This document shows, one piece after another, positions 37,179 to 59,252 of a stretch of DNA of 64,000 nucleotides (positions within the stretch are counted from its first letter, which is position 1; each line of letters begins with the position of its first letter). The stretch covers positions 96,001 to 160,000 of the IMG/VR virus record IMGVR_UViG_3300024324_000009; one strand, given 5' to 3'. A program made the position numbers and the translations under genes. Source of the DNA: a virus. The notes below the pieces were generated by a model. That model saw nothing but the letters and a program-made list of their open reading frames with translations, searched no databases and was not told where the DNA came from.

Positions 37179-38096
37179 TTATTCAAAGACAGGTGAAGGA
37201 ATACCATTTCCTTGGTAATTAGGACTACGGTGTTTTATGTTAGGTAAGTCTTGGCAGTTTTTGCTAAGAAGTACTACCCAATCGTCAGAAGTTTTAGGCA
37301 AAGGTTTACTCATGCCCTTGAGATATGACAAAGTTAAAGCAGCAATACCAACTACATAAGGAGTAGCCATTGAAGTACCACTTAATCTAGCATAACCTTC
37401 GGGGACGCAAGAGATTATGTCTTCGCCCGGAGCAACAAAATCTAAAGTTTCTCCTGTGCAACTAAAATTAGAGACATTCAATTTTCTACCTACTGAACCA
37501 ACAGCCACCGTATACCTAGAACTAGCAGGATAATTAACTTTATTGTGATTACCACTATTACCAGCAGCACAGAATATTCCTATTCCATGATCATGAGCAT
37601 ATTTTAATGCTGATTCTAATCTAGGAGAATGATGAGGAGAACCTAATGACATAGTAATTAAATCTGCATCTAATTGTACTGCTGTTCTAACTCCATCAGC
37701 AACATGATTATTATTACCCATACCATTATCACCTAATACTTTTATTGGTATAATTTTAACTTTAGGTGCAACTCCTACTACTCCGTATTTATTGGCAACA
37801 GCACCAATAGTGCCTGCAACATGACTTCCGTGACCATTATGGTCAGACGGATACGTTCCGGGTTCTATGGCACAATATCCGGGTAAAGCTAGATTCTCAT
37901 GCAGATCGGGGTGTTCAAGATCACATCCAGTGTCTATAACTGCGACTCGTACACCACCTCCTTCAGTCACATTCCAACAAGATGGTATATCAAATTCATT
38001 TAATGCCCACGGAATCAACTGTGCAGAACCTAAATTAAGACCATAGATATCTTCTCTAATATATGGTAATAGACCACAATCATTTCTTCTTCTCAC
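37179..38096 (-). CDS. subtilisin-like (S8) serine peptidase
   Basis: VAVIDTG, HGSHVAG, AAGN, SGTSMATP. Confidence 0.95.
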   Translation of the reverse strand: MRRRNDCGLLPYIREDIYGLNLGSAQLIPWALNEFDIPSCWNVTEGGGVRVAVIDTGCDLEHPDLHENLALPGYCAIEPGTYPSDHNGHGSHVAGTIGAVANKYGVVGVAPKVKIIPIKVLGDNGMGNNNHVADGVRTAVQLDADLITMSLGSPHHSPRLESALKYAHDHGIGIFCAAGNSGNHNKVNYPASSRYTVAVGSVGRKLNVSNFSCTGETLDFVAPGEDIISCVPEGYARLSGTSMATPYVVGIAALTLSYLKGMSKPLPKTSDDWVVLLSKNCQDLPNIKHRSPNYQGNGIPSPVFE

Positions 38097-38922
38097 TTTT
38101 CACTCTCTCTTTCTGTATTTTTTGTATTGTTGCAATTTGTTCAGGTGTTAATTTATCTATAATCTCTATTTGTTCTTTTACTGCTTTGATCCAAGGAATA
38201 AATTTACTAATTCTAGTAAAGCAAGCATCGTCACCATAGTCTGAATCTCCCTTGCCATCTGTAGCCATTATAAAAGAATTTATACCAGCCAGCTTTTGGT
38301 CTATAAACATCCCACCACCACTGTCTCCGGGTGCTATTAAAAATTCTAGGCTAGTATGTGCATCATCTGATTTAACAAGCAGACAGTCTTTATACATTTC
38401 AGCAACAAGGTTAGAACCTGCTCTCCTCTTGTTGTCAAATGGTTTCCAGCCGGTTTTAAATGTACCGTGATGTCCATACCCTGCCATGCTGCAAACTTTA
38501 CTCATCTCATCTGATTCAGTATATAGTTCGGGATAAAAATCTAAGTTTATTGGCTTGCTTAATTTACCAACTGCTATATCAGCTATTCCTGTCTTATCGT
38601 ATTTCCAATCTGAATGTATAGCAATTATGCTGACGGGGACTACTTTATTATTGAAGATCACATTCTGTGACAAACTTCCTGCCACTACGTGGGCAGCGGT
38701 TATTATATATTTAGGAGAGATTAAAATACAAGAACCTCTAAAGGTACTATTAAGATCATTAGACATTATACCTTGAATAGGTAAAACACACTGGTGTTTC
38801 TTTCCATATTCTAAATATTTTGAATCAGGAACACTAGGGAGTCTTGTTCCTGCGATACTGTCAGTCGGGGTCGTTATCTGAACTGTTATAAACAGCAGCA
38901 GAATACCAATCAAAAGTCTCAT
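38080..38922 (-). CDS. trypsin-like (S1) serine peptidase with signal peptide
   Basis: TAAH, DIA, GDSGG; hydrophobic N-terminus. Confidence 0.92.
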   Translation of the reverse strand: MRLLIGILLLFITVQITTPTDSIAGTRLPSVPDSKYLEYGKKHQCVLPIQGIMSNDLNSTFRGSCILISPKYIITAAHVVAGSLSQNVIFNNKVVPVSIIAIHSDWKYDKTGIADIAVGKLSKPINLDFYPELYTESDEMSKVCSMAGYGHHGTFKTGWKPFDNKRRAGSNLVAEMYKDCLLVKSDDAHTSLEFLIAPGDSGGGMFIDQKLAGINSFIMATDGKGDSDYGDDACFTRISKFIPWIKAVKEQIEIIDKLTPEQIATIQKIQKERVKSEKKK

Positions 38923-39529: not shown

Positions 39530-40111
39530 ATGTCTAAGCCTAATAAGATACTTATTACTGGAACAGGCCGTTGCGGTACTACTTTTCTCATGAGACTGTT
39601 TGCTCATTTGGAAATGCCTAACGGAGTTAATGCTGACTCTAGTGAAAGAGGTGTTTTTGGTAACTGTAATTCAGGACTAGAGTTAGATGTGCATCTTACT
39701 AATGTAGCAAGAAGCCCATACATACTCAAGTGTCCTAGCTACATTGATAAACTACATGAAGCTGTCCAGAAGGTAGAAATTGATTGGTTGATCTTGCCAA
39801 TTCGTGAATACCAAGAAGCAGCACAAAGTAGAGCAGATCATGGCAGAGCCGCTGGAGGTTATCTAAGAGGTTCTAACATGCAAAGTGAATTGTCTGGTGC
39901 GTACAAAGCCATAGCACATGGCATTAGAGTAATGACGCAGTATGATATCCCTTTTATTCTTTTAGATTTTGGTCGTATGGTTAGCGATCATAGATATCTT
40001 TATAATAAACTAGAGCCTATTATGAAGAAATATGCTATAGACGGTAAAACCTTTGAGACTGCTTGGATTGCAGCATCAGCCAAAAGTAAAAAGAATACTA
40101 GGAGTAAATAA
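39530..40111 (+). CDS. sulfotransferase-like P-loop protein
   Basis: ILITGTGRCGTTFL, ILKCP, PIR...A..S; GAGG RBS; only credible plus-strand gene. Confidence 0.7.
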   Translation: MSKPNKILITGTGRCGTTFLMRLFAHLEMPNGVNADSSERGVFGNCNSGLELDVHLTNVARSPYILKCPSYIDKLHEAVQKVEIDWLILPIREYQEAAQSRADHGRAAGGYLRGSNMQSELSGAYKAIAHGIRVMTQYDIPFILLDFGRMVSDHRYLYNKLEPIMKKYAIDGKTFETAWIAASAKSKKNTRSK

Positions 40112-40115
40112 TTTT

Positions 40116-40139
40116 TAGGGGGTGCGAGAGCATCCCCTA
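40116..40139. terminator. hairpin between convergent genes (putative terminator)
   Basis: TAGGGGGTGC-GAGA-GCATCCCCTA. Confidence 0.7.
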
Positions 40140-40703
40140 TATTCTTCTCCTGTCTATGACAACACAAAAATCATCATAGCGTTTCTTTGCATCCCATCCG
40201 TCCCACACATAGGCTAATCCTTGAAGTGCATCAGGAACACACTTGATTATTTCCTTAGCATTATCATAACCATGAATATCTTCTGTGATCCAGACACCTT
40301 TATCTGACAACAGCGTTTGAGACAGACTAATTAAATACTTCTGTTGTTCTAACTTATGGGAACAGTCTTCTATAATAAGATCAAAGTCATTCCTAAAATT
40401 AGACTCAGCCCATTCTTTAAACTCTGGCTTTGAAACATCACCGACATAGAACTCATCGAATAGTTCACACCAAGTTTTATTGGAAGGTACATGACCAGAC
40501 ACAATATCTTTCCTGAGATCAGCACCTACTAAAAACTCTCCTATATTATTATCTTTAAGAAATTTAGCAAACCCACAGGAAGATGTTCCTATCTCTAGGA
40601 TTTTCCTGTGGGGTGTAAGGAAAAAGTTCTGATATAACAATCTATAGTTATGATAAGAGCAAAACTTATCAGTTTCATCTCTACTGCTTTCATAGTCCAG
40701 CAT
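40137..40703 (-). CDS. class I SAM-dependent methyltransferase
   Basis: TDK...H.Y...Y, ILEIG, FDLIIEDCSH, ITEDI. Confidence 0.8.
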   Translation of the reverse strand: MLDYESSRDETDKFCSYHNYRLLYQNFFLTPHRKILEIGTSSCGFAKFLKDNNIGEFLVGADLRKDIVSGHVPSNKTWCELFDEFYVGDVSKPEFKEWAESNFRNDFDLIIEDCSHKLEQQKYLISLSQTLLSDKGVWITEDIHGYDNAKEIIKCVPDALQGLAYVWDGWDAKKRYDDFCVVIDRRRI

Positions 40704-40723: not shown

Positions 40724-41728
40724 TTAATCCAGTAAACTCGCTGCAATTAAGCATCCTTTAGAAACAGAATGTAATGGGTCGTCTGCATGTTTTACAACCT
40801 CAATACCAAGAGGAAACCCTGACTCTTTCAATTTTTCCTCTAGTTTTTCTACATAACCTTCAGCCCTTGATGTGCCACCAGCAACAACAATCTTGATGTC
40901 ATCTTTAAACTTAGGTAAAGATTTGTGACCATCTAACGCTGCGGATAATTGTTTAGCAGTATAATCAATAAGTCTTTCATAGTAAGAAGCAACAGCACTT
41001 AAAACCGGATTGTCATTAGCTTCACCGACTTTAAAACCACCGCTTTCTTTTTCTACCTGTACAACACTATCAGCTTCACCTGTGGCAACTGCACTCATGC
41101 GGTCAACCCAATCACCTGACTTTGTGGTACTGAAGACTACTGTTGGTTCGCCGTTGAGCATAACACAAACATTGGTCATACCTGCACCACAACTAATGCC
41201 AATGCCAGTATAGTCTGTGTCTTCTAACTCAGCGTAACACAACGCTTCTGCTTCGTTCACTGACCTTGCATCATATCCTACTTCTGCAAGGATAGCTTGT
41301 ACTGTATCTTCGTGGAAGCCTACGTCAAAGTCTTCATCTTCTTGATCCACTGGTTGTGCAGGAACACAGTATACCAGTTTCTCACCTTCAGTTTCAGCCT
41401 GACCGACCACCTCTTTTAAAATGTAAGCCAATACACGTTTAGCTTCTTTTTCTTTTACGGAGATTACACCTCTGTGCATAGGACGACGAGCAGTTTCATT
41501 TCTTTCGACTGCCTTCTCAATAGCATCAGAACCGAGAAGAATAAAAGAGCCATCTTCATCTTTGACAAACACTTTTCCTGCCAAACCTTTTTCAATCATT
41601 TTATTCGCTATAGGGGTGGATGGTTTAATAATATAAAACGCATCTCTAAAATCTTTGAATTTAATATTGTCGCCCTCATACTGTGACATTACAATAAAAC
41701 TCGTGCCTACGTCAAGTCCGATTCCCAT
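40724..41728 (-). CDS. actin-family ATPase, volactin-like
   Basis: phosphate-1 GLDVGT, connect-1 NEAEA, phosphate-2 SCGAGMTN, adenosine VAGGTS, connect-2 PL.SV.KG. Confidence 0.85.
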   Translation of the reverse strand: MGIGLDVGTSFIVMSQYEGDNIKFKDFRDAFYIIKPSTPIANKMIEKGLAGKVFVKDEDGSFILLGSDAIEKAVERNETARRPMHRGVISVKEKEAKRVLAYILKEVVGQAETEGEKLVYCVPAQPVDQEDEDFDVGFHEDTVQAILAEVGYDARSVNEAEALCYAELEDTDYTGIGISCGAGMTNVCVMLNGEPTVVFSTTKSGDWVDRMSAVATGEADSVVQVEKESGGFKVGEANDNPVLSAVASYYERLIDYTAKQLSAALDGHKSLPKFKDDIKIVVAGGTSRAEGYVEKLEEKLKESGFPLGIEVVKHADDPLHSVSKGCLIAASLLD

Positions 41729-41730
41729 AA

Positions 41731-42036
41731 TTATTTACCTTTCATATTTTTTAGTTTACTAATTGCTGACTGCGTGTTGTCTTTTGATGTCTTGGTTTTA
41801 CCAAGAGAATCAAATTTCTTTTCTAAACTATCTGTAGCTATATGCTTATCTAATACAACTTTAGTATCGTCGATATTAATTGCATTATGCTTTCTTTCTT
41901 GCTCAATTTCTTTTTGTTTGTCGAAAAAACTTCTGGGCTTATCCGATGAGGCATTTGTTTTAGTGACATAAACGCCCCCAACAAAACCCATAGTAAACAC
42001 AAACAAATAAGATATAACATATATTGGTACTTCCAT
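41731..42036 (-). CDS. single-pass membrane protein
   Basis: N-terminal TM; charged tail ending SAISKLKNMKGK. Confidence 0.75.
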   Translation of the reverse strand: MEVPIYVISYLFVFTMGFVGGVYVTKTNASSDKPRSFFDKQKEIEQERKHNAINIDDTKVVLDKHIATDSLEKKFDSLGKTKTSKDNTQSAISKLKNMKGK

Positions 42037-42037
42037 A

Positions 42038-42424
42038 TCACCTATTAGATTTAAGCCACTTTAAATAGTTGCTTAGATCGTTATACCCCTTTCGTCGAGA
42101 TTTAATTTTGTTTTTCGATAAGTATACTGAATCAGGAATTGAGGATACACTGTATTCTTTTTTTATTTTAGTATTCTCGTCTACGTTTATTGTACAGATT
42201 ATAAGGTCTTTGAGTTCGTCTTTACTGACACTGGCAGACAAATCTTTTTTAAGCATCTTACAATATTTGCACCAATCTGCTGAGAAGACTAACAGTATAT
42301 CTATACCTAGATCGTTGCTAACTTTTACAGCACTCTCATAATTATTCATAAACACTGGCGGTCTAGCATATGCTGTGCCACCAATCAAACAAGCCAGTAC
42401 AAAGGCTATAGTTTTCTTTATCAT
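42038..42424 (-). CDS. exported thioredoxin-fold protein
   Basis: signal peptide ending AYA; FSADWCKYC; SIP cis-Pro loop. Confidence 0.88.
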   Translation of the reverse strand: MIKKTIAFVLACLIGGTAYARPPVFMNNYESAVKVSNDLGIDILLVFSADWCKYCKMLKKDLSASVSKDELKDLIICTINVDENTKIKKEYSVSSIPDSVYLSKNKIKSRRKGYNDLSNYLKWLKSNR

Positions 42425-42451
42425 ACATCACCTCCTGTTCGTATGACTATA

Positions 42452-42457
42452 TACACC
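42452..42457 (-). promoter_or_regulatory. GGTGTA promoter element heading the thioredoxin-membrane protein-actin unit
   Basis: intergenic, 28 nt from the ATG. Confidence 0.55.
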
Positions 42458-42469
42458 CTGACAAGGTTT

Positions 42470-43360
42470 TTACCTGATTTTGCCTAACACCCGTCCTTTA
42501 GGCGTTCTAACAACAAAACCCATTCTAATCATATACGGTTCAATGCTATTTGATATAGTATCCTCAGAGATGCCGCACATCGTAGCAATACTTTTGATAC
42601 CCATAGGTTGACCTATCTTCTTCTGTAACACATCAATGTACTTACGATCATTAACATCAAACCCATTCTTATCAATACCTTGCTTATTGAATATTGCCTC
42701 AACATCGTCTTTACGCTGATGGAACTGCACGTAACTCTTATACCATTGAAGTCTAGCATTTAGAACTCTAGGAGTACCCTTGCTACGTTTAGCAATATCC
42801 AGCAACTCATCATCAGTTAGTTCGTCAAGTCCCATCTTCTTTACATTCAACCTAGCTAGATTAGCTAACTCACTAGGCGTATAGAACTGTAGATGTTCTT
42901 TGATTACAAATCTGTCATAAAATGGTTGGGTTAGACTGCCACCATTAGTTGTTGCACCGATCATGCAAAACGGAGGGATGTCAATGCCTTCGTCTTCATT
43001 CTCCTGCATGAGATCAAGCCTGAAGTCTTCCATCACTGGATACAGGAACTCTTCTACAAGAGTAGGCAGACGATGAATCTCATCAATGAATACGATACTA
43101 CCACGCTCTACGCTCATGAGGTAAGGTATGATACTCTTAATATTTCTAATCGTAGCAGCATTTAGAGTATGGATTTTTACACCTAACTCATTAGCGATAG
43201 CATTAGACATAGTAGTCTTGCCTAAGCCCGGTGGGCCATCAAGTAATGTATGAGGCATAACGTCTCCGTCCTTGCATCCTGCAATCATAATACTCAGACG
43301 TTCTTTAACATCTGTTTGTCCAATTACATCTTCAAAAGTTGTTGGTCGTAGATTATTCAT
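42470..43360 (-). CDS. ruvB: Holliday junction branch migration ATPase RuvB
   Basis: LRP, GPPGLGKTT, FIDEIHRL, GATT, GTPR, EPY, RTPKGR. Confidence 0.95.
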   Translation of the reverse strand: MNNLRPTTFEDVIGQTDVKERLSIMIAGCKDGDVMPHTLLDGPPGLGKTTMSNAIANELGVKIHTLNAATIRNIKSIIPYLMSVERGSIVFIDEIHRLPTLVEEFLYPVMEDFRLDLMQENEDEGIDIPPFCMIGATTNGGSLTQPFYDRFVIKEHLQFYTPSELANLARLNVKKMGLDELTDDELLDIAKRSKGTPRVLNARLQWYKSYVQFHQRKDDVEAIFNKQGIDKNGFDVNDRKYIDVLQKKIGQPMGIKSIATMCGISEDTISNSIEPYMIRMGFVVRTPKGRVLGKIR

Positions 43361-43955
43361 TTAGTTTTGCTCCTTCTTTTCTGAGAACCAGTTCAATCAG
43401 TTTCTTCCTGTCAATCGTTAGGTCAGCACAGTTCTCTCTCATACAATCAGAAGCTAGCTTGCTCGCTGTTCCTGCATTGTAACCGTACTTCTTTAAAACC
43501 TTCACTGCCTCAGTTATAGCATACATCTGCTCATCTGTCAAGACATTAATTGCAAAAGTGTTTTCTACTGGAGCAAACTTAGATTCTTGCATATATCCAT
43601 GATCAGGGATTATCTTATTGTTATCAAAATTAAAATCTTTTAATACAGGATCATTGGACTCAGGGTCAGGAGTAGGAGTAGGAGTAGACTCAGGAGTAGA
43701 CTCAGGAGTATTAAATACTGGTTGAGTTTGTTTTGGTACAGGAGGAACCTTCTTATCATCATAGTAGACTTTCATTTTAGTAACGAACTGAGGTCGCAAT
43801 ATAGAGTTGCAATCAGGACAAACAATCATAAAGCCTTCTGTCATGGCTTCTGACAAGGTTATATAATTATCACACTCACATTCAGGACATTCGTATACTA
43901 AGTGTCCTTCAAACTTTTTAGGTTTCTGTTCGTTAAATGTTTTCCTGTTCTTCAT
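43353..43955 (-). CDS. zinc-ribbon protein with RuvA C-terminal (domain III)-like helix bundle
   Basis: CPEC...CPDC; Pro/Thr linker; EAVKVLKKYGY...A...LIELVLR. Confidence 0.65.
   Translation of the reverse strand: MKNRKTFNEQKPKKFEGHLVYECPECECDNYITLSEAMTEGFMIVCPDCNSILRPQFVTKMKVYYDDKKVPPVPKQTQPVFNTPESTPESTPTPTPDPESNDPVLKDFNFDNNKIIPDHGYMQESKFAPVENTFAINVLTDEQMYAITEAVKVLKKYGYNAGTASKLASDCMRENCADLTIDRKKLIELVLRKEGAKLNE
43657..43710. repeat. short in-frame tandem repeats encoding TPESTPESTPTPTPDPES
   Basis: gactcaggagta twice and ggagta units. Confidence 0.8.
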
Positions 43956-44361
43956 CTTGTCCATCCTTTTCTGGTTTCCAAAAAATAAAGTCTTGCTTTT
44001 CATCGTCGAAAGCACACTCAAGCTGTCCCTTGGCGACTAGGCCATTCATCAAATTACTGACTAACCTGCCAGTGATATCTTGTACCAACTTTTCGTATTC
44101 ATGTACTCCAATTATAAACCGTTTATCCTTTTTGTCAAATCGAATGTAGTCTTTTGATATAGTAGTTACTTCTTTTAAAGTTAGGTATTCATTTATTTCT
44201 TGTTTTTCCTCTTCGTCAAGATCATCATACTTATATTTAAGTAGTTCACTAGAGTCTTTATCGTGCATGGCACCAAATATTCCATATACCCAAACTCTAG
44301 TTGCTTGTAAAAAGTCTCCAAGTTTATCAATAACAAATTGTTCTTCATGATCATCCGACAT
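43933..44361 (-). CDS. hypothetical protein
   Basis: GAGG RBS; C-terminal L...G.LEC.FD....F resembles the C-terminus of 63342..63803. Confidence 0.7.
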   Translation of the reverse strand: MSDDHEEQFVIDKLGDFLQATRVWVYGIFGAMHDKDSSELLKYKYDDLDEEEKQEINEYLTLKEVTTISKDYIRFDKKDKRFIIGVHEYEKLVQDITGRLVSNLMNGLVAKGQLECAFDDEKQDFIFWKPEKDGQDEEQENI

Positions 44362-44841: not shown

Positions 44842-45720
44842 TTAGAAGCAGTCGTCATCATCATAATCTTCGTCGTCTTCGTCGTCTTCGTCGTACTCAT
44901 CAAACGAATCCCAGTAAGCAGGAGAGTACCATCTTGGATCGCCATTTGCGTTAATATCCTCTTCATCATGGTATTCGTCCTCCTCAAATTCAGCCTTATA
45001 CAAAGGTTTCGGCAGTTCGCCTTGGTATTCACCAACAACCTCGTATTTGCAGGTTCTTAGTTTCTCGCAGTTGCAATCACTAGGAACACTTACAACGTCT
45101 GCTGGGTTTATCTTAACGATAACGATTCGATCATTGTTATCTACGCTGCCATAGTTTGCAACATAGTTCAATGCTCCAGCGTGTAGTCCTTGCGAACAGC
45201 CGACACTTCTATTGTCGTCTACTTTTGCTCTCGGCATCTCACAAACACTACCTACTTGATTATCAAAGACTCCACGCCATTTATCTTTGAAGTCTTTGTT
45301 TACTGCCTTGTATGCCAGAAAACAACCGTCTTCTGTAATTGGCAGATTCTCATGCTCCAAGAAATCGTAGAGTTCTCTTTGACTCTGCATACTTGGATTT
45401 TCCATTGCATTATTTAAAAAGTTTACAAGAGGCTCAAACGGCAGACCTTTACTCATAAACTCTAGGATTCGCTTGGATACACTTCCATGCACTTCTTCAC
45501 CTGCATGTAGCACTCTGCCATCCTTAATTACTACCTGACCAGAAGAGTAGGCTTCAACCGATGCTTCTAGATCAACCAGTATCACCAACTCATCTTCCGT
45601 TGCAGTTGGCAGAACTTCTAAAATGTTCTCATAGTTAACGTGATCTGGAAGAACCTGATAGGCTTTGCCCTTCAGCATTACTGTCAAATTTCCATCAACA
45701 AACATAAAAGGTACACTCAT
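44842..45720 (-). CDS. rIIB: rIIB-like protein
   Basis: L..FL......NPS, ELY.FL, PIT.DG.F.AYK, CS.GLH.G...Y, VKINP.DVVSVP.D, R.C.YEV. Confidence 0.9.
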   Translation of the reverse strand: MSVPFMFVDGNLTVMLKGKAYQVLPDHVNYENILEVLPTATEDELVILVDLEASVEAYSSGQVVIKDGRVLHAGEEVHGSVSKRILEFMSKGLPFEPLVNFLNNAMENPSMQSQRELYDFLEHENLPITEDGCFLAYKAVNKDFKDKWRGVFDNQVGSVCEMPRAKVDDNRSVGCSQGLHAGALNYVANYGSVDNNDRIVIVKINPADVVSVPSDCNCEKLRTCKYEVVGEYQGELPKPLYKAEFEEDEYHDEEDINANGDPRWYSPAYWDSFDEYDEDDEDDEDYDDDDCF

Positions 45721-45740
45721 AATCATTTACTCCTGTGAAA

Positions 45741-48383
45741 TTAAAGTCCAAAACTATTCTTAATATCGTCCCGATCAACATTCTTAACACTTGAGAGCAT
45801 TGAACCATATCGGTTGTCATCAGCCATTCGCATGATTGTGCCGTCTGGTTGTGCATCTTTCATCTCCAAATCTTGATCTCCTATACCCATAGTATACTTG
45901 AGCATTGGTGATCTGTCAAGCCCCTGTTTGAATTTCTTACGAATATCATGGATACTCGGCAAGGCCTTCAAAATTGACTCACAATCGACTTGTTTTAAAA
46001 GATCGTCCATTGACACTATATCTCCAATACCAGCCCTTGTCAGTTCATTTCCGGCTTCTATAGCCTTGTTTAACCTAGACTTGATAGACGACAAACGCGA
46101 TGGGTCAACTGGTGGCAGTCCACATTCGACCAGTTTATTCTCAATAATATCCAATACTTCTTGGTTAGTAAAAGGTTTAGCCAATGTAGACTGATTAAAA
46201 TTGGATATAGCATATAGAGTGATATATGATTCTAGTGCTTCTACCAAGTCTTTATCATTAATTTCTTTAGCAAAATCCTTACCATAGATGTTTAACAGAT
46301 GGGCAGACATTAGTTGTTCTGTCTTGTTGCATTTGCGGTATCCATTGGTTCTGCTACCGTCCTCCATAGCTAGTTCAAGTATCGCAGCCTCCCTTATTTT
46401 ACACCATACCGCAATATCTTTGATTTGCTTGGCATACACTTTAGTTGCTTTGCCCTTGAACCACTCACTGAACTTGACCAGTTTGTAACCATCTTTTTGC
46501 AGCTTTTTAACAGCATTTGTCTTGATAGCAAAGACTGTATTTTTAGACAGTAGTTCCTTACCGAACTTCACATCCTCGTTGCCTGCTAGTCTACAGATAC
46601 GATAGATACTAATCTGATCCATACTTTGGTATCGACTAATTGGCACGTAAATAATCTTGCCATCATAAGTGCTAAGTTTATCTATCATGTCTTGGCTGAG
46701 TTCACGCAGGTAGCCTGACTCGTTCATGTCTTTCTTGCCAGTAAGTCCCTCAAGCCCTTCGTGACCACCAGTTTTAGCAACCACAAACATTTCGTTAACA
46801 GAAATGCTACCTTTAGCACCACCACTGCTGCTGCCGTTGCGGATCAAGTCTGCATAGTCACTGACTTTTAGTACTTCGCCACCAAACCATTTAATCAGTT
46901 CATCGAAACCGTTTAATGACATTTCATGAGGTCTGACTGTATTAATCATGAGGTATGCCTGAGCATTATGAATCTCACAATATTCTAGTGCAATCTTCTT
47001 AGCACGTTCTACAGACTTAACATCACAGACGAATAGTTTAAGACTATTACGCTTGGTTTTGTCGTAGTACGAATCTGCCTTGCCTTCAAGTGTCTCACCA
47101 TGCAGAGTGTCTGTCTGATAAACTTTTCTCTTGGAACGATATGTAGTCGTTTTCCAATTAAAAACATATAGCTGACTCTGTTTGTTCATCTCAACCTTCA
47201 GGTTTTTACCAGATGAGAGTTCGTGAGTTATGCCATCTGCATCTGTCCACGCTGCACCAGCAGTGTATCCACCTGCAATATCATTCAGGTTATAGTAAGT
47301 TCTGTATGCTTCTACCAGACAGTTGGCTTCCTCCACCTTCTTAGAAACATTTTCTTTGAGTTGCATGTAGATAGCCTGAGTTTTCTCACGCAGTTTCATG
47401 ACTGTAGCCTTGGTATACTGCAAACCTTCACGGCTAACGTCCATCTCAAGATCGCCAATGTTAAATTCAATCTCAAGATACAAACCTTGATTAAGAATGT
47501 CTGACACTAGGTTCTTCCAGTTAGCCAAGTCTACCTTGCCGAACACTTTGTTCCATGCTCGAATAGCATCACTTTCTTGGTCTTTTTCTTTACCGATAAC
47601 TTGCTCTGCAACTACTGGGTATGCAATATTTCCCATGATAGCTATGATACCAGCACCGCAGTTGTTATACTGAGAGGGAAAGGTATCGTTTCGATGGTCA
47701 AGTCTTCCAACCTTCCAGCCTTCACCTGAGATAACTGTCTCATTGTTTCTGTATGTGCCGTCATTCAGGTTTTCAGAGACACCACCAACAATCGTAGGCT
47801 GATTCTTGAAATAATGAAAGACTCTCTTAGCCTTATCTGAAAACTCTTCAAAGTCTGACTGACTCACAGCAAAACTAATTTCAATACCATTAGGCTCATT
47901 CGTATCCGTAACACCGAACAGGCTCAAGCTAGGTACACCTGTTTCATCCATAGCAGCGATGTAGGTATAGCACTTACCATTAAAGAAAGAGGCAGTGGTA
48001 AAACTCTTGGTATAAGCAAATGGACTCTTAGAACCCAGACCAAGACAACCAGTAAAATCATTACTATCATTCTTGTTGCTAGCACCATACGTTGTGTATA
48101 GTTCTTCCATGTCCTTCTGACTTAGACCTGTACCATAATCTCTGATAGTAAAGTTAGGATCGCCAGCATTAGGCAAAGTCACCTTAAATGGTCGCTGGTT
48201 TTTTGCTGAGACATGTGCATCGTTTGCATTCGTAGATAGTTCTCGAATGATTGCCATAATCTTATCAGAGTACAAAGAGTCTGACAAAATCTTGAACATC
48301 TTGCTCGTCTGAGCGATAGTGAATCCGTTAGTGCCTTGTACTCCTGCACTGTGGTTCTCAACTGTTACATCTGCTAATTTCAT
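45741..48383 (-). CDS. rIIA: rIIA-like protein (GHKL ATPase N-domain)
   Basis: F.ILS..LYSDK..A.IREL.TNA.DAH, RDYGTGLS, G.LGLGSKSPFAY; adjacent to rIIB. Confidence 0.92.
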   Translation of the reverse strand: MKLADVTVENHSAGVQGTNGFTIAQTSKMFKILSDSLYSDKIMAIIRELSTNANDAHVSAKNQRPFKVTLPNAGDPNFTIRDYGTGLSQKDMEELYTTYGASNKNDSNDFTGCLGLGSKSPFAYTKSFTTASFFNGKCYTYIAAMDETGVPSLSLFGVTDTNEPNGIEISFAVSQSDFEEFSDKAKRVFHYFKNQPTIVGGVSENLNDGTYRNNETVISGEGWKVGRLDHRNDTFPSQYNNCGAGIIAIMGNIAYPVVAEQVIGKEKDQESDAIRAWNKVFGKVDLANWKNLVSDILNQGLYLEIEFNIGDLEMDVSREGLQYTKATVMKLREKTQAIYMQLKENVSKKVEEANCLVEAYRTYYNLNDIAGGYTAGAAWTDADGITHELSSGKNLKVEMNKQSQLYVFNWKTTTYRSKRKVYQTDTLHGETLEGKADSYYDKTKRNSLKLFVCDVKSVERAKKIALEYCEIHNAQAYLMINTVRPHEMSLNGFDELIKWFGGEVLKVSDYADLIRNGSSSGGAKGSISVNEMFVVAKTGGHEGLEGLTGKKDMNESGYLRELSQDMIDKLSTYDGKIIYVPISRYQSMDQISIYRICRLAGNEDVKFGKELLSKNTVFAIKTNAVKKLQKDGYKLVKFSEWFKGKATKVYAKQIKDIAVWCKIREAAILELAMEDGSRTNGYRKCNKTEQLMSAHLLNIYGKDFAKEINDKDLVEALESYITLYAISNFNQSTLAKPFTNQEVLDIIENKLVECGLPPVDPSRLSSIKSRLNKAIEAGNELTRAGIGDIVSMDDLLKQVDCESILKALPSIHDIRKKFKQGLDRSPMLKYTMGIGDQDLEMKDAQPDGTIMRMADDNRYGSMLSSVKNVDRDDIKNSFGL

Positions 48384-53218: not shown

Positions 53219-53783
53219 CTTTCCATACCTCCGCATCTCTTCTATCGTGTTTGTGTCTGTATCCTAATTTCCCCATTTTTCTATAATACTCATTAATATT
53301 CATTTTTGTGTGTGCAGTTTCAAATCGTATCCATCTTATGTCATACTTTTCATAGTCTATGCTTTCTAGTATATGCAAATCATAGCCTTCAGTATCTACA
53401 TATAATCTATCAATAGTTTTGAATCCTGTCATTCCAAATAATTGATTTGCTGTACACGCAGGATGTTCTTTAGGATATATATTAAAATCTTCCCAACCCA
53501 TCTTTTTTAAATGCTCTTTATTAAAACTTGTATGTTGCCCATTTTTTTCTACGTCAGAATAATAAAGTTTTACTGTTTTTTGATGTGGGTCTGTGGTAAT
53601 TGCTCTAGCCAGTATCTTTACTTCAACATCAAAGTGTTCATAGACTTTTAAACAGTTGCTAAGTTTATCTATGTTTGGGTCTACACAAGTTAATCTATTA
53701 ATTTTATTATGATTAGCTTTTACAAATTTAAAACAATCGTCACAGGTAAAGCAATCGTTGCTACCTATCTGTACTATATTCAT
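53211..53783 (-). CDS. FkbM-family methyltransferase
   Basis: IVQIGSND, VDP, ID.L.VDTEGYD..IL. Confidence 0.82.
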   Translation of the reverse strand: MNIVQIGSNDCFTCDDCFKFVKANHNKINRLTCVDPNIDKLSNCLKVYEHFDVEVKILARAITTDPHQKTVKLYYSDVEKNGQHTSFNKEHLKKMGWEDFNIYPKEHPACTANQLFGMTGFKTIDRLYVDTEGYDLHILESIDYEKYDIRWIRFETAHTKMNINEYYRKMGKLGYRHKHDRRDAEVWKDE

Positions 53784-54160
53784 TTCTTCTTACCTTTCAA
53801 GTCCGCTATGTTCTGTGCTATATCTACTAGCCTATCCCAATTTTCATCTATGTATTTTTCTGGCCCACCCATATCAGCCTGTGCTTGTGCTATTTCTTCA
53901 GTGGGAACCATTTCAATAGCATCCCAAGGACAAACCTTAACATCATATAACTTTCCTTTATTACCCGGAACATGGATACATTGTTCGCAACCTATACAAG
54001 TAGATAGATCAATCTCACACCATTGAGTTACTCCCTGTTTTATCTGGAATATACAATCAACAGGACACACTTCTAAACAAGCCTCGCAGCCCGTACAGTT
54101 GTCTGCCTGAATGATTGCTAATTCTTTGGGTATCTTTTTTCTTACTTTTTTATCTGCCAT
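53780..54160 (-). CDS. 2[4Fe-4S] dicluster ferredoxin
   Basis: CTGCEACLEVCP and CIGCEQC...CP. Confidence 0.92.
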   Translation of the reverse strand: MADKKVRKKIPKELAIIQADNCTGCEACLEVCPVDCIFQIKQGVTQWCEIDLSTCIGCEQCIHVPGNKGKLYDVKVCPWDAIEMVPTEEIAQAQADMGGPEKYIDENWDRLVDIAQNIADLKGKKK

Positions 54161-55461
54161 TAAGCTATAATATCGTGTTGGATATTTCCGAATACGTCTG
54201 TTAGTCTAAAGTCTCTACCACTATACCTATAAGTAAGTTTAGTATGATCTATTCCCATCAGATATAATATAGTAGCATGTAAATCATGTATGTCAAGCCC
54301 GTCTACTGCTTTGTGTCCAAAATCATCAGTAGTGCCGTATCTCATGCCACCCTTTACGCCACCGCCTGCCATCCAGACAGTGAACCCACCATTATTATGG
54401 TCTCTTCCTGTAGCACCAGCCTTGATGCCCGGAGTACGACCAAACTCACTACCGAATAAAACTATAGTGTCCTCAAACATGCCAGAATCTTTTAAATCTT
54501 GTAGCAACGCACCAATAGGCTGATCAATAGCAGTTCCCTTACGCTGAATGTTGCCAGCGATGTCTTGGTGATTGTCCCAACCACCGAATCCGATCTCGAC
54601 AAATCTCACGCCTGCTTCACTAAATTTCTTCGCTAACAAACACTGCTTGCCAAACTTTTCTGTTGTCTTATTATTTATACCATATCTTTCTAGAGTTTCT
54701 TGTGACTCTTTTGATATGTCAATAGTTTGTGGAACACTTGTCTGCATTTTATAAGCCAGTTCATAACTTTCGATCAGGCCTTCCAATCTGCTATTCTCGC
54801 CTTTTAATTGCAGATGGTTTAGATCGCTAAGAAAATCTAAGTTCTCTCTTTGTTCAGCCATTCCTATTGGACTTTTTAAATTAGGTATTGCGTTTGCCAT
54901 ATTACCTGCATTAACTGCTGTGCCTTGATATATTGCAGGAAGAAATGCACTTCCGTAATTCTCTGGCCCAATACCAGCATCAATCGTTAGAAAACCGGGA
55001 AGTTCTTTGTTCTCAGTTCCTAAACCATACAGTAGCCAACTACCCATACTGGGACGAGTAAACTGGAAATTGCCTGTGTGTAATAATTGTTTTGCTTGAT
55101 TATGATTACCAGACTTTGATTTCATTCCATTAATTAAACATAGGTCATCGGCATGTTTTCTCAAGTGAGGAAAATTTTCACTAATTTCAATACCACTTTC
55201 TCCTGCCGGTGTGAGTGGAACAGCAGGCTTGACAATCTTTCTGCCTTTGCTTACTGGATCGTCGATACCATCTTTCTCAACCATCAAAGGCTTGTAGTCA
55301 AAAGTATCGGTGTGACTCATCCCTCCACCCATATAGCAAAATATAATCTTCTTTTTAATTGCTGTAGTTTCTTCTGCAAGTAGGCCTTTCAATGCCAACA
55401 TGCCAAACCCAGCACTTGCTGTTTGTAATAAGTTTCGTCGATTAAAATAGTTATTGTACAT
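54160..55461 (-). CDS. DUF1501 protein with Tat signal
   Basis: NRRNLL, M.GG.SH.DTFDYKP, RPSMGSW, GWDNH, EFGRTP, GRDH, DLHAT. Confidence 0.93.
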   Translation of the reverse strand: MYNNYFNRRNLLQTASAGFGMLALKGLLAEETTAIKKKIIFCYMGGGMSHTDTFDYKPLMVEKDGIDDPVSKGRKIVKPAVPLTPAGESGIEISENFPHLRKHADDLCLINGMKSKSGNHNQAKQLLHTGNFQFTRPSMGSWLLYGLGTENKELPGFLTIDAGIGPENYGSAFLPAIYQGTAVNAGNMANAIPNLKSPIGMAEQRENLDFLSDLNHLQLKGENSRLEGLIESYELAYKMQTSVPQTIDISKESQETLERYGINNKTTEKFGKQCLLAKKFSEAGVRFVEIGFGGWDNHQDIAGNIQRKGTAIDQPIGALLQDLKDSGMFEDTIVLFGSEFGRTPGIKAGATGRDHNNGGFTVWMAGGGVKGGMRYGTTDDFGHKAVDGLDIHDLHATILYLMGIDHTKLTYRYSGRDFRLTDVFGNIQHDIIA

Positions 55462-57928
55462 TTCTAAATTCTCCTGTGCATATTAATATTTGGATTAGGT
55501 TTGCAAGATTCTTTTCCATAATCTCATTCTTTTTCTTGATGTCTACTTTGCTTGTGTAGTCAACAAACTCTTCACCTTCTGGGGTCTTACCAACTCCTAA
55601 ACCAATCTGTTCTGCTTGCTCTGTATCTTTTAGATAAAAATCCATCGCTGCTTCAAATTCAACTTTAGATGGTGGCCTTCCAAGAATCTTTTGCCATATA
55701 CTATGAAGATTATTATGGTGCAATAGCCTTGGCATGGTTCTACCCATCCTCATATTATTTTGCCATATCTCTTTTGCCATTTCTTTACACATGGCGATGA
55801 TCTTTGGATTGTTCATTAAGAATAATGCTTGAGTACTAACTGTTGTTACATTTCTTTCTGCTGCCAGCAGGCTATTGTCTGGACGATCAAACATATCAAG
55901 TATCTCAATCTTATTATCCCTTAACGATGGAATATAAATTGATCTAGCTTTAGTTTCCCCAATATATTTTCTTAATTCTTTTCCCGGTGCTTTAATTCCT
56001 GTTTGTATCTCACTTATGTTCTTATGCGACCCCTCTAGTTTGCCTGAGACAAATAACAGAGTGTCCCTAATTTGTTCAGCCTCTAATCTTTTCTCATTCA
56101 TTCTCCAAACGTAAACATTGTCTGGGTCAATCTCAAAATTATCTTTATTGAAGTTACTACTGCGTTTATATGCGTCACTCATAACGATAGTTTTAATTAG
56201 TCGCTTGTTTGACAATTTACCAGTAACAAACTTACTTGAAAGATAGTTCATTAGTTTAAGATTGCTTGGCTCACCACCAAGTATACCAAAATTATCAAAG
56301 CTGTCAAGTATACCTTTTCCAAAAAGATGTCGCCATACCCTGTTCACATGAACTCTGTAAGTCAGAGGATTAGTTTTATGTGCTATCCATTCTGCCAGTT
56401 CATAACGTCCACTGGTATTATCAAAGTTGAGAAATGGTCTGTCACTAAATATTTCAGGCAATCTTCTTGGCACTTCATCACCAAGATTATTAACTTCTCC
56501 CCTGATTGCAATTTTAATCTCAGTCATTTTAGTCTTGTCTTTTACAGACATTATAGGCTCAAGAAATTCTAGATAAGCTAAATCTTTTTCATTAAGTTTA
56601 GTCTTGGCCTCATCTAATCTCTTTTGTCTTTTATCTGTCTCTCTTTTAAGTTGTTCTGGAGTAACTCTTTTGCTCCAAGTTTTAATAGATTCTAATTGTG
56701 CTTCTAAGTTCTTGGTCTCACATAAAGCTAACCATCTCTCAATCTGTCTTTGCTTGTACAGGCTTTCAGTTTCTTTTGTGACTAAAAAATCGTAATCACC
56801 AAGATAGCCTGTATTATTATTACCTCTATATAATCCATCAAGGTTTTGTGTGTTACTAAATAAACCAGCAACACCATAGTAGTCTTCTTGGCTAAATGGA
56901 TCAAACTTGTGATCATGGCATCTTGCACAACTCAGAGTCATGCCAAGAAAACCTCTTGTAACTGCGTCTATTTGGTCGTCGTTGCGGTCTGCTTCAAACT
57001 GTCTAGTCTGTGCCTGTATATTTTTTGTACCTATTGTTAAAAAGCCTGTGGCAATTCTATTAATATTATATTCTTCATAGCTTTTATGTGGTAATAGATC
57101 GCCTGCAATTTGCTCTTTTATAAAATCATCGAATGGTTTGTCATTGTTAAAACTATCAATAACATAATCTCGATACCTCCAAGCATACGGACTAACCAAA
57201 TTTCTGTCTGAACCAGATGATTCTCCATATCTGGCTACATCTAACCAGTGTCTTCCCCATTTTTCTCCAAAGCCTTCGTCATCAAGTAAAGTATCGACTA
57301 AATTTTCATAACGATCTTCACTCTTATTCTGCATAAACTGCCTCATCTGTATTTCACTTGGGGGCAAACCAATAAGATCAAAATATAGTCTACGCATTAT
57401 AGTATAGTCTTCTGCTAATTCACTAGGCTTTAAACCATGCTTATCTAAATCTAATTGCAGTATTGCATCTATCTCTGTACCATCGTCATACTTTGCTACA
57501 GGAGGACGCTGAACTTTTTTGAATGACCAGAACTGTCTAGCCTGCCTAAGTTCTATTGCTCTATTCTCATGCTTGTATCGTGGGTCAGGCATTCCCATTT
57601 TAATCCATTGTCGGAATAATTCAACAGTCTTTTCATCTAGTGGTTGATCAGGAGGCATGTCACCAGACTCTACATAGTCAAAAAGAGAACTCTCTTCTGG
57701 CTTACCCGGAACCACACTTGGCCCAGAATCACCACCGTTTAATATACCTTGCCTAGTATCTATGGCAAATCCACCTTTAGTTTTTTCTGAGGCAGATGAA
57801 TGACATGAATAACATTGGGTTTGTAACACTGGTAAGATATTATCATTAAAAAATTTGACACCACTTTTATCTTGACTATAAGCTATACTAGCAGATAGTG
57901 CAACAACAATAGCGATAACATATTTCAT
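55451..57928 (-). CDS. planctomycete cytochrome c protein with DUF1549 and DUF1553 domains
   Basis: signal peptide; CYSCH..MPP; RRLYFDLIGLPP; RHWLDVARY; CARCHDHKFDP; VNRVW..LFG.G; QALFLMN. Confidence 0.93.
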   Translation of the reverse strand: MKYVIAIVVALSASIAYSQDKSGVKFFNDNILPVLQTQCYSCHSSASEKTKGGFAIDTRQGILNGGDSGPSVVPGKPEESSLFDYVESGDMPPDQPLDEKTVELFRQWIKMGMPDPRYKHENRAIELRQARQFWSFKKVQRPPVAKYDDGTEIDAILQLDLDKHGLKPSELAEDYTIMRRLYFDLIGLPPSEIQMRQFMQNKSEDRYENLVDTLLDDEGFGEKWGRHWLDVARYGESSGSDRNLVSPYAWRYRDYVIDSFNNDKPFDDFIKEQIAGDLLPHKSYEEYNINRIATGFLTIGTKNIQAQTRQFEADRNDDQIDAVTRGFLGMTLSCARCHDHKFDPFSQEDYYGVAGLFSNTQNLDGLYRGNNNTGYLGDYDFLVTKETESLYKQRQIERWLALCETKNLEAQLESIKTWSKRVTPEQLKRETDKRQKRLDEAKTKLNEKDLAYLEFLEPIMSVKDKTKMTEIKIAIRGEVNNLGDEVPRRLPEIFSDRPFLNFDNTSGRYELAEWIAHKTNPLTYRVHVNRVWRHLFGKGILDSFDNFGILGGEPSNLKLMNYLSSKFVTGKLSNKRLIKTIVMSDAYKRSSNFNKDNFEIDPDNVYVWRMNEKRLEAEQIRDTLLFVSGKLEGSHKNISEIQTGIKAPGKELRKYIGETKARSIYIPSLRDNKIEILDMFDRPDNSLLAAERNVTTVSTQALFLMNNPKIIAMCKEMAKEIWQNNMRMGRTMPRLLHHNNLHSIWQKILGRPPSKVEFEAAMDFYLKDTEQAEQIGLGVGKTPEGEEFVDYTSKVDIKKKNEIMEKNLANLIQILICTGEFRNVQ

Positions 57929-57929
57929 A

Positions 57930-59252
57930 TTAAACCTCTCTTGCTTTGCCATGTAGATGTTTGAAGGTTGGAAATCTTAGGCTTATCCCACCTTCCTGAT
58001 TTGTAGTCTCCTCAAAATATTGTACCAAAATAACCATGCCCTTAATTAGGTCAGGATTATTGTAAAACTCCTGTCTTTGATCAATAGTGAATCCACTTCC
58101 AACTCGTACATGATGTCCTCTATGGGTAATATACACACAACTGAGCATTTCTTCCTCACATTCTGCACCATCCTTGACATATCGAAATGGCCCCATTTCT
58201 ACGTCATCTACGGTATATTCAGCATCCTGAAAGGTTTTAACTTTTAACAGGTCTTTTGACCTTTTACCTTTATATGTCGTGTTCTTACGAAGCATTACGC
58301 CTTCCCAGCCGTATTTGTCAGCCTGTTTAGACCAGAACTGTAAACCTTCATCATCTTTGACAATACTCATTCTTAGGACACTGAGACAAGGACATTCGTT
58401 CTTCTCCATAGCCAAGGCTAATTCAGTCATTCTCATTTCCAGATTACTCTTGCTTGAGCCTTTTTGGAAGTCATTAAAGTCAATCATGTCAAAGATTTTA
58501 AATGACGGGTTTTTAATTGTATGGTCTTTCTTGCGAATCTGTTTCATTACACCTTGAAAATCCTCATTTCCATCATCATCAATCAGACACAACTCACCGT
58601 CTAAAACTTTGTTAGTAAGTTGTAGACCCTTAATGCCATCATAAACAACACCAAGAGTAGTGATTTCTTTTCCTGTACGGGTATAGAAGTTAATGTCACC
58701 AAAAGCGTCAATAATAGCAACACATCTAACACCATCCAATTTACGAGAAACATACCAACCCTCTCCCCATTCGTGTTTGTCAGGATTAAACTTATCCGCT
58801 AAAGCAACATTAAATTGTCTGATAAGACCGGGAACAGCCTTGTTGATGAGTTTAGCACCTGTCCTAGTTTTTAAATCTTTATCAAGAATTAGATACACCA
58901 GTTCCTCATCATGTGGAAACTTTTTGATATATGTATTGATAATTCTAACAGCGTCATGTCCAGTATATCTACCAGTGCGTAAATCACTAAACAGTGATGC
59001 TAAACCATATCCGGGTTCACAATCACCAAAGGAGAGGTCAGGACGTTTCTTCACCTGCTTACTGGTAATATTGTACATACTGTACGGACAGTATGCCATG
59101 CTGAGTACGGTCTTTGCAAAGAGTTGATTGCCGTTCTGTTCCTCAACGCCGCCTGTGTATTCCAGCAAGATGTCCAATTTGTCATTGGTACTGCTGTTGT
59201 GTCGTAGTTCCTCGATCATGTCCATAACGTGTAGTGTAGCTTGTTTAGTCAT
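57930..59252 (-). CDS. ATP-dependent DNA ligase
   Basis: KLDGVR, LDGE, FD, EGVMLR, LLKVK, VGSG, SLRFP. Confidence 0.95.
   Translation of the reverse strand: MTKQATLHVMDMIEELRHNSSTNDKLDILLEYTGGVEEQNGNQLFAKTVLSMAYCPYSMYNITSKQVKKRPDLSFGDCEPGYGLASLFSDLRTGRYTGHDAVRIINTYIKKFPHDEELVYLILDKDLKTRTGAKLINKAVPGLIRQFNVALADKFNPDKHEWGEGWYVSRKLDGVRCVAIIDAFGDINFYTRTGKEITTLGVVYDGIKGLQLTNKVLDGELCLIDDDGNEDFQGVMKQIRKKDHTIKNPSFKIFDMIDFNDFQKGSSKSNLEMRMTELALAMEKNECPCLSVLRMSIVKDDEGLQFWSKQADKYGWEGVMLRKNTTYKGKRSKDLLKVKTFQDAEYTVDDVEMGPFRYVKDGAECEEEMLSCVYITHRGHHVRVGSGFTIDQRQEFYNNPDLIKGMVILVQYFEETTNQEGGISLRFPTFKHLHGKAREV

Follow-up and report, generated by a model that had tools for sequence, protein, structure and literature searches.

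Can a phage build a membrane-anchored actin cytoskeleton of its own? The question is raised by a short minus-strand locus in a 64,000-nucleotide stretch of viral DNA (hereafter the window), which covers bases 96001-160000 of the 171,040-bp IMG/VR virus record IMGVR_UViG_3300024324_000009, is rated complete by CheckV, and represents a phage of marine origin whose hosts are probably planctomycetes. A preliminary description of the window, made from the letters alone, had read this locus as a single unit of three genes headed by GGTGTA and encoding an exported thioredoxin, a single-pass membrane protein and a volactin-like actin. The open reading frames (ORFs), their strand and positions, the 1-2 nt gaps (one nucleotide from thioredoxin stop to adaptor ATG, two from adaptor stop to actin ATG) and the leading GGTGTA are all present in the sequence, and the volactin identity, the actin fold and the link between membrane protein and actin withstood analysis, whereas the three-gene unit did not. 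We propose, with a probability of roughly 60%, that two of these genes form a phage module in which a volactin-family filament and a membrane adaptor together make membrane-tethered actin. The elements of the locus are as follows.

40724..41728, minus strand: volactin-family actin, 334 amino acids (aa) (PF25216 match, AlphaFold2 (AF2) model, fold search, motif alignment).
41731..42036, minus strand: putative single-pass membrane adaptor, 101 aa, with an N-terminal anchor, a cytoplasmic part of ~78 aa and a C-terminal tail ...AISKLKNMKGK (synteny, sequence anatomy).
42038..42424, minus strand: thioredoxin-like protein, predicted to be exported, 128 aa, with WCKYC; an accessory gene in a variable slot (PF00085, synteny).
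42452..42457, minus strand: GGTGTA motif between ruvB and the thioredoxin gene, with AGGAGG and then the ATG after it (sequence reading).

The 334-aa protein is a full-length member of the volactin family. Residues 1-330 align with positions 1-321 of the 321-position Pfam Volactin profile (PF25216) at 228.9 bits (E 1.4e-67, cut-off 35; 228.5 bits for the same profile in the genome search), whereas MreB_Mbl (PF06723) reaches 24.9 bits over residues 58-206 only, under its cut-off of 27. Across the NCBIfam models for BeeR, MamK, salactin and MreB, scores of 17-37 bits stand against cut-offs of 293-530 (MreB TIGR00904, 19.1 vs 365.75; salactin NF053533, 31.6 vs 400; BeeR NF053558, 36.6 vs 530; MamK NF040964, 36 vs 400, even though MamK is the best structural match). 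The preference for volactin over MreB expressed in the preliminary description is thus upheld by the hidden Markov model (HMM) comparison that it had suggested as a check. Pfam Salactin (PF25229) gave no match at E<=0.01 in the Pfam scan, no ParM/StbA family was listed in the Pfam and NCBIfam scans, BLASTP returned no significant alignment with planctomycete MreB, a PDB sequence search returned nothing significant (BeeR, 8r2n, at E 0.36), and PHROGs had no family for this protein. Every motif string quoted in the preliminary description is present, and the five actin-fold motifs lie in register with those of planctomycete MreB (phosphate 1 GLDVGT, connect 1 NEAEA, phosphate 2 SCGAGMTN, then GDWVD, adenosine AGGTS and connect 2 DPLHSVSKGC). 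Residues D6, G8, T9, E159, G181, G183, G284 and G285 are invariant across 50 diverse homologues, and the nucleotide-binding motifs are therefore intact; in phosphate 2 (S-x-G-A-G-M-x-N), a serine replaces the usual aspartate family-wide, as seen in the aligned haloarchaeal and planctomycete members.

An AF2 model based on an alignment of the 50 diverse homologues was of high confidence (predicted local distance difference test (pLDDT) 96.9, predicted template modelling score 0.93) and was used in place of a single-sequence model (pLDDT 37). Its closest solved structures were the MamK filament (Z 28.3, root-mean-square deviation 2.8 Å over 292 residues), the BeeR filament (Z 27.8) and MreB (Z ~26.9), and the 50 best rows by Z were actin-superfamily chains throughout, with F-actin and Arps after these three and EutJ and FtsA further down the list. 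Grouping with non-polymerising members of the acetate and sugar kinase/Hsp70/actin (ASKHA) superfamily, named beforehand as the outcome that would count against a cytoskeletal role, did not occur, since family scores and structural matches both point to filament-forming actins. The fold, as modelled, is closest to polymerising actins rather than to kinases or Hsp70. Polymerisation itself would follow by analogy with a relative: in vivo, the volactin of Haloferax volcanii, the one member known to do so, assembles into dynamic filaments whose tips attach to the membrane (PMC10869688).

Conservation of the locus separates the actin and the adaptor from the thioredoxin. Linkage was counted in the 80 best loci among 289 matching stretches in IMG/VR; their contigs reach 230 kb and their actins are 75-97% identical. 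A metagenome protein search added 1779 homologue clusters (E <= 1e-5), the best 120 at 77-97% identity and several of these from Tara and other marine sets; locus scans started from single proteins gave one locus for P0127 and none for P0130. The adaptor gene lies immediately 5' of the actin gene in all 80 loci and RuvB is encoded upstream in 73. Actin is the most conserved gene of the neighbourhood, with RuvB at ~57-65% and the adaptor at 29-55% identity once the nearest relative is left out. The thioredoxin gene is found in only 25 of the 80 loci, each time in the interval that separates ruvB from the adaptor gene, and can therefore be regarded as an accessory insert; since the ruvB-adaptor interval ranges from ~50 nt to ~5 kb, it appears to occupy a variable insertion slot. 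Its product matches PF00085 (46.6 bits) and carries WCKYC as first described, and its N-terminus resembles, by eye, a Sec signal peptide, with KK, then a hydrophobic run, then AYA|RP. Of the gene linkage expected in related phages, the adaptor-actin part is thus invariant and the thioredoxin part is not: what is conserved as a unit consists of the adaptor and actin genes alone.

The adaptor has the anatomy originally described, a single membrane pass followed by a basic C-terminal tail, and this anatomy is uniform among 57 distinct homologues. All of them have a transmembrane (TM) window with a hydropathy of at least 1.77 and one N-terminal hydrophobic helix, and K+R is 0.16 before the TM segment vs 1.53 after it, so that sequence rules predict an N-out/C-in topology. 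The cytoplasmic part measures 71-84 aa in every case and ends in [KR]-L-[KR]-x-[LMI]-[KR], with the consensus S-I-N-K-L-K-N-M-K. No Pfam or NCBIfam family matched the adaptor, and no DNA-binding domain was found in those scans.

Similar tails recur on the genes that precede volactin well outside this clade: in phages whose actins are 51% and 41% identical to that of the window, in one huge GenBank phage, and in many Planctomycetota genomes (L092-L120, L132-L211), where the upstream partner is 270-420 aa long, coiled coil in part, and ends ...N-L-A-K-L-K-N-L.... In three haloarchaeal megaplasmids, volactin follows a 4-TM DUF7139 protein (124-163 bits) with A-V-x-G-L-[RK]-x-L, which agrees with the published adjacency of the CdpA-like 4-TM protein HVO_2016 and volA in Haloferax (PMC12126565). 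To quantify this recurrence, a 9-column profile was trained on the window clade only, and the nearest upstream ORF of each volactin gene was scored against the 99th percentile of background. Scores above that percentile were obtained for 12 of the 32 loci outside the clade (binomial p ~2e-16) and for 6 of 51 independent viral loci (p ~1e-5), and both loci inspected after the motif had been defined contained it. In a first set, a fixed regular expression formulated post hoc matched 15 of 29 tails vs 3% of background. A different adaptor class occurs on huge-phage contigs (L083, L215-L288; up to 527 kb), where a protein of 72-105 aa encoded directly 5' of volactin ends W-x-IPDF...K-x-FGK; this pattern, set after viewing the data, is found in 24 of 51 partners vs 7 of 1762 background ORFs.

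Volactin is not archaea-specific, and is common in Planctomycetota. A search begun from an acidic homologue in a metagenome-assembled genome (MAG) found volactin over cut-off in 65 of 151 genomes of this phylum, at up to 312 bits, and a conserved-peptide scan retrieved 326 volactin loci, the 80 listed being almost all titled Planctomycetota or Planctomycetia. Besides record titles, the assignment to this phylum draws on the absence of FtsZ, on DUF1501 expansion and on 16S rRNA. FtsZ was not found in five volactin-bearing planctomycete genomes, and two such genomes contain 73 and 92 DUF1501 genes. Their 16S rRNA genes match planctomycete probes, and a normal MreB, encoded in five genomes, often accompanies volactin in this phylum. 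DUF1559 is not expanded in five volactin-bearing genomes and so could not be used as a phylum marker. The phage encodes, at 53780-57952 on the minus strand of the window, a DUF1501 protein (430 bits), a PSCyt1/PSCyt2/PSD1 protein and a 2[4Fe-4S] ferredoxin, all from families that are hugely expanded in some planctomycete genomes. Because the phage carries these DUF1501 and PSCyt1/PSCyt2/PSD1 genes, a planctomycete host is supported, and the FtsZ-less planctomycete host suggested in the preliminary description is consistent with both these genes and the absence of FtsZ from five volactin-bearing genomes. The DUF1501-rich genomes (L101-L104, L109, L110) contain a divergent volactin subfamily that scores 98-132 bits against a profile of the volactin family built for this analysis; the one member compared (L102) is 20% identical to the phage actin. 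The gene for the upstream partner in this subfamily, a protein of 476-495 aa that ends G-x-L-[ED]-R-[AV]-L..., runs up to or into the start of the actin gene.

Rapid maximum-likelihood trees with the root placed on MreB, the second built without L128, an ORF wrongly chosen as MreB, placed the window's clade within a virus-only group of 24 sequences that holds all phages with KLK-type adaptors (Shimodaira-Hasegawa-like approximate likelihood-ratio test (SH-aLRT) 99). Phages with membrane-anchored adaptors form a subclade of 12 (SH-aLRT 99), and Planctomycetota, haloarchaea and the huge phages each lie apart, with a poorly resolved backbone. Recent gene capture from a host was rejected on this virus-only grouping and on the identity of the phage actin to its nearest cellular homologues, ~35-36%. 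As judged from its sequence, the phage actin gene is an old viral lineage.

Several variant forms of volactin were also seen. An intein carrying a LAGLIDADG homing endonuclease interrupts the phosphate-2 region, near residues 181-204, of several homologues of ~700 aa (P0122, P0129), one of which is 53% identical to the actin of the window; inteins are usual in important phage genes. Fusions (P0193; P0126; L084:4217-5770) include a Wzz/GNVR/ParA-like tyrosine-kinase module joined to volactin (1160 aa) and a tandem double volactin (729 aa), and the same set contains a volactin with an N-terminal zinc-ribbon extension beside a paralogue in one MAG.

Because volactin always lies directly after its membrane-anchored partner, the phage probably builds membrane-tethered actin filaments. 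In the mechanism that we propose, the 334-aa ATP-binding actin would polymerise within the cytoplasm of the host, giving dynamic filaments, while the 101-aa adaptor, whose translation would be closely coupled to that of the actin, would sit in the cytoplasmic membrane with its N-terminus out and its ~78-aa part in the cytoplasm. The conserved C-terminal tail (S-x-I-N-K-L-K-x-M-K-G-K) would dock onto the actin, and this docking would nucleate or tether filaments at the membrane. The thioredoxin would be an accessory periplasmic protein encoded beside the module and outside it. Since the two genes are set among genes of DNA metabolism (rIIA/rIIB, mini-RuvA/RuvB, ligase), the module probably acts during replication. 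The surrounding elements are listed here.

42470..43360, minus strand: RuvB (RuvB_N 154 bits, RuvB_C 67 bits), a conserved upstream neighbour given as context, with no membership of the system implied.
43353-44021, minus strand: mini-RuvA.
Between mini-RuvA and rIIB, minus strand: two small genes.
44842-45726, minus strand: rIIB.
45741-48383, minus strand: rIIA.
40137-40703, minus strand: methyltransferase-like gene, 3' of the actin gene.
44111..44138, minus strand: candidate sigma-70 promoter, TTGACA-16-TATAAT (12/12 match to consensus), possibly serving the run from mini-ruvA to the actin gene.
40116..40139, plus strand: candidate terminator-like hairpin (10-bp stem, 6 GC pairs) between the methyltransferase gene and a convergent plus-strand gene; a possible end of the unit.

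The candidate promoter lies inside a 142-aa ORF shortly upstream of the mini-ruvA start. The GGTGTA motif stands 27 nt 5' of the thioredoxin ATG, within the 45-nt spacer that follows ruvB, with the AGGAGG ribosome-binding site next to it, and occurs somewhat more often in the window than expected (38 copies vs 24.5 +/- 4.3). Downstream of the actin gene, a trypsin-like exported peptidase is encoded together with an S8 subtilase at 37179-38922 on the minus strand; they are found in 55 of the 80 clade loci, and a trypsin-like gene also lies immediately 3' of actin in the distant phage L088, which may reflect plain collinearity or a functional link. The sole nearby plus-strand gene (39530-40111, 193 aa) has no family match and begins with a P-loop-like sequence, KILITGTGRCGTTF. 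Elsewhere, the actin gene of a volactin locus is followed by a sulfotransferase-like gene (L100:4036-4806).

The most serious rival to this phage-built module, because host and phage adaptors have the tail motif in common, is a takeover of the host cytoskeleton, in which host volactin is brought to the membrane by the phage adaptor, or the phage actin acts on host filaments and adaptors by capping, co-polymerisation or competition for them, so that the cell is remodelled with no separate viral cytoskeleton. Host volactin would be widely available for this, given its frequency among Planctomycetota genomes and the mostly planctomycete titles of the 326 loci; the partners there end close to the phage tail, and the phage has DUF1501 and PSCyt/PSD genes typical of planctomycetes. 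Yet the phage actin is ~36% identical to planctomycete volactins and falls in a virus-only clade, which makes co-polymerisation less likely, the DUF1501-rich genomes have only the divergent relative, 20% identical to the phage protein, and the host assignment is itself a prediction. The constant presence of both phage genes suggests a self-sufficient pair, and overall we consider a takeover unlikely. Segregation of phage genomes, with a filament that pushes or positions DNA through a DNA-binding adaptor as in ParMRC or the prophage system AlpAC, has a precedent in actin genes preceded by a small adaptor gene whose product binds the filament through its C-terminus (e.g., AlpC/AlpA of the Corynebacterium prophage CGP3), and the module does sit amid replication and recombination genes. 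It is nonetheless improbable, as the adaptor is a membrane protein in which Pfam and NCBIfam searches found no DNA-binding domain; ParM/StbA is likewise not listed in those scans, and no search for centromere-like repeats was made. It seems quite improbable that the protein shares no more than its fold with actins and is an ASKHA ATPase that does not polymerise, akin to chaperones, kinases or EutJ. An actin fold by itself is no proof of polymerisation, EutJ and FtsA do appear lower in the fold list, and phosphate 2 is atypical, with S for D; against this stand the uniformly actin-superfamily structural matches led by the filament-formers MamK, BeeR and MreB, the very high conservation of the actin, as is typical of polymer-forming proteins, and the filaments made in vivo by a member of the same Pfam family (PMC10869688). 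A three-gene functional unit, with periplasmic redox chemistry coupled to membrane-anchored actin, draws on the tight spacing and single upstream GGTGTA in this genome and on the position of the thioredoxin gene just 5' of the adaptor gene in the loci that carry it. This we judge very improbable, since 55 of the 80 loci keep adaptor and actin without the thioredoxin, synteny already contradicting the unit, and since the interval in question is a variable insertion slot.

A number of observations also weigh against the membrane-tethered filament that we favour. What points to tail-actin binding is gene position and motif recurrence, and the motif spans few residues: an HMM built from 22 residues of the clade tails detected no significant match in other clades (best E 1.2), the fixed regular expression matched only 1 of 51 partners in the independent set, most non-clade partners score within background, and the huge phages have a differing tail. 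Since the trained profile succeeds while the HMM and the regular expression fail, we consider the motif real, but short and variable. The serine in phosphate 2, though found across the family, may affect the predicted ATPase activity, and the promoter and terminator candidates are consensus matches only.

The phage cytoskeletons known so far are the tubulin spindle formed by PhuZ and a small number of DNA-moving actins of the ParM/AlpC type. We found no description of a volactin-adaptor module in the literature on phage actins, huge phages and planctomycete phages, nor a paper describing Planctomycetota volactins with coiled-coil partners; the volactin papers found concern haloarchaea or cite volactin in passing, none of those listed dealing with phages or Planctomycetota, in a search outside which many subscription journals lay. 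An actin whose family has until now been investigated in a single haloarchaeon alone is here, throughout a large set of environmental phages, encoded by a core gene under strong constraint and always accompanied by a membrane anchor, and if filaments form, it would represent a second major kind of phage-built cytoskeleton, acting in hosts that have no FtsZ, complex membranes and a poorly understood cell biology. The common adaptor tail also offers a simple, testable handle on how cellular volactin filaments are attached. More tentatively, and at somewhat less than even odds, we suggest that an extensive group of big phages, abundant worldwide and including some that infect FtsZ-less planctomycetes, makes an actin cytoskeleton of its own, held to the host membrane by a minimal adaptor whose tail motif is common to the volactin systems of Planctomycetota and haloarchaea. 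If so, volactin and its tail-motif adaptor would be an ancient, portable filament-and-anchor module exchanged among viruses, bacteria and archaea.

Among known systems, haloarchaeal volactin offers the closest characterised comparison. The phage protein shares a Pfam family at full length with Haloferax volcanii VolA (HVO_2015), and is ~35% identical to the haloarchaeal megaplasmid homologues, which have the same atypical phosphate 2 and an adjacent membrane-protein gene with a similar L-[KR]-x-L motif in the cytoplasmic part of its product. The haloarchaeal proteins are, however, cellular, whereas the phage one is viral and lies in a separate virus-only clade, and their partner is a DUF7139 protein, whereas the phage partner is a 101-aa single-pass protein without DUF7139. 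Because only the short tail motif is common to the two partners, their relation could be analogy or extreme divergence, and the role of volactin in the rod-to-disk shape change of H. volcanii is not transferable to the phage. Planctomycetota volactins, from the likely host phylum, belong to the same family and have an upstream partner with the same kind of tail, but these partners are soluble and without a membrane anchor, and the actins are ~36% identical to that of the phage.

AlpC/AlpA of prophage CGP3 and plasmid ParM/ParR likewise pair a mobile-element actin gene with a small adaptor gene, and in ParMRC the adaptor C-terminus binds the filament; their actins belong to other families, and their adaptors bind DNA whereas that of the phage is membrane-anchored. 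MamK/MamJ, BeeR and MreB/RodZ include the closest solved structures and exemplify bacterial actin filaments held at membranes through partners, although the phage sequence scores far under their family cut-offs and their partners are unrelated to the phage adaptor. The PhuZ spindle of nucleus-forming jumbo phages is a phage-encoded cytoskeletal polymer present during infection, with a tubulin fold rather than an actin fold, and it is not known to use a membrane adaptor. If the wider proposal is correct, phages would organise infection with a volactin module as nucleus-forming phages do with PhuZ.

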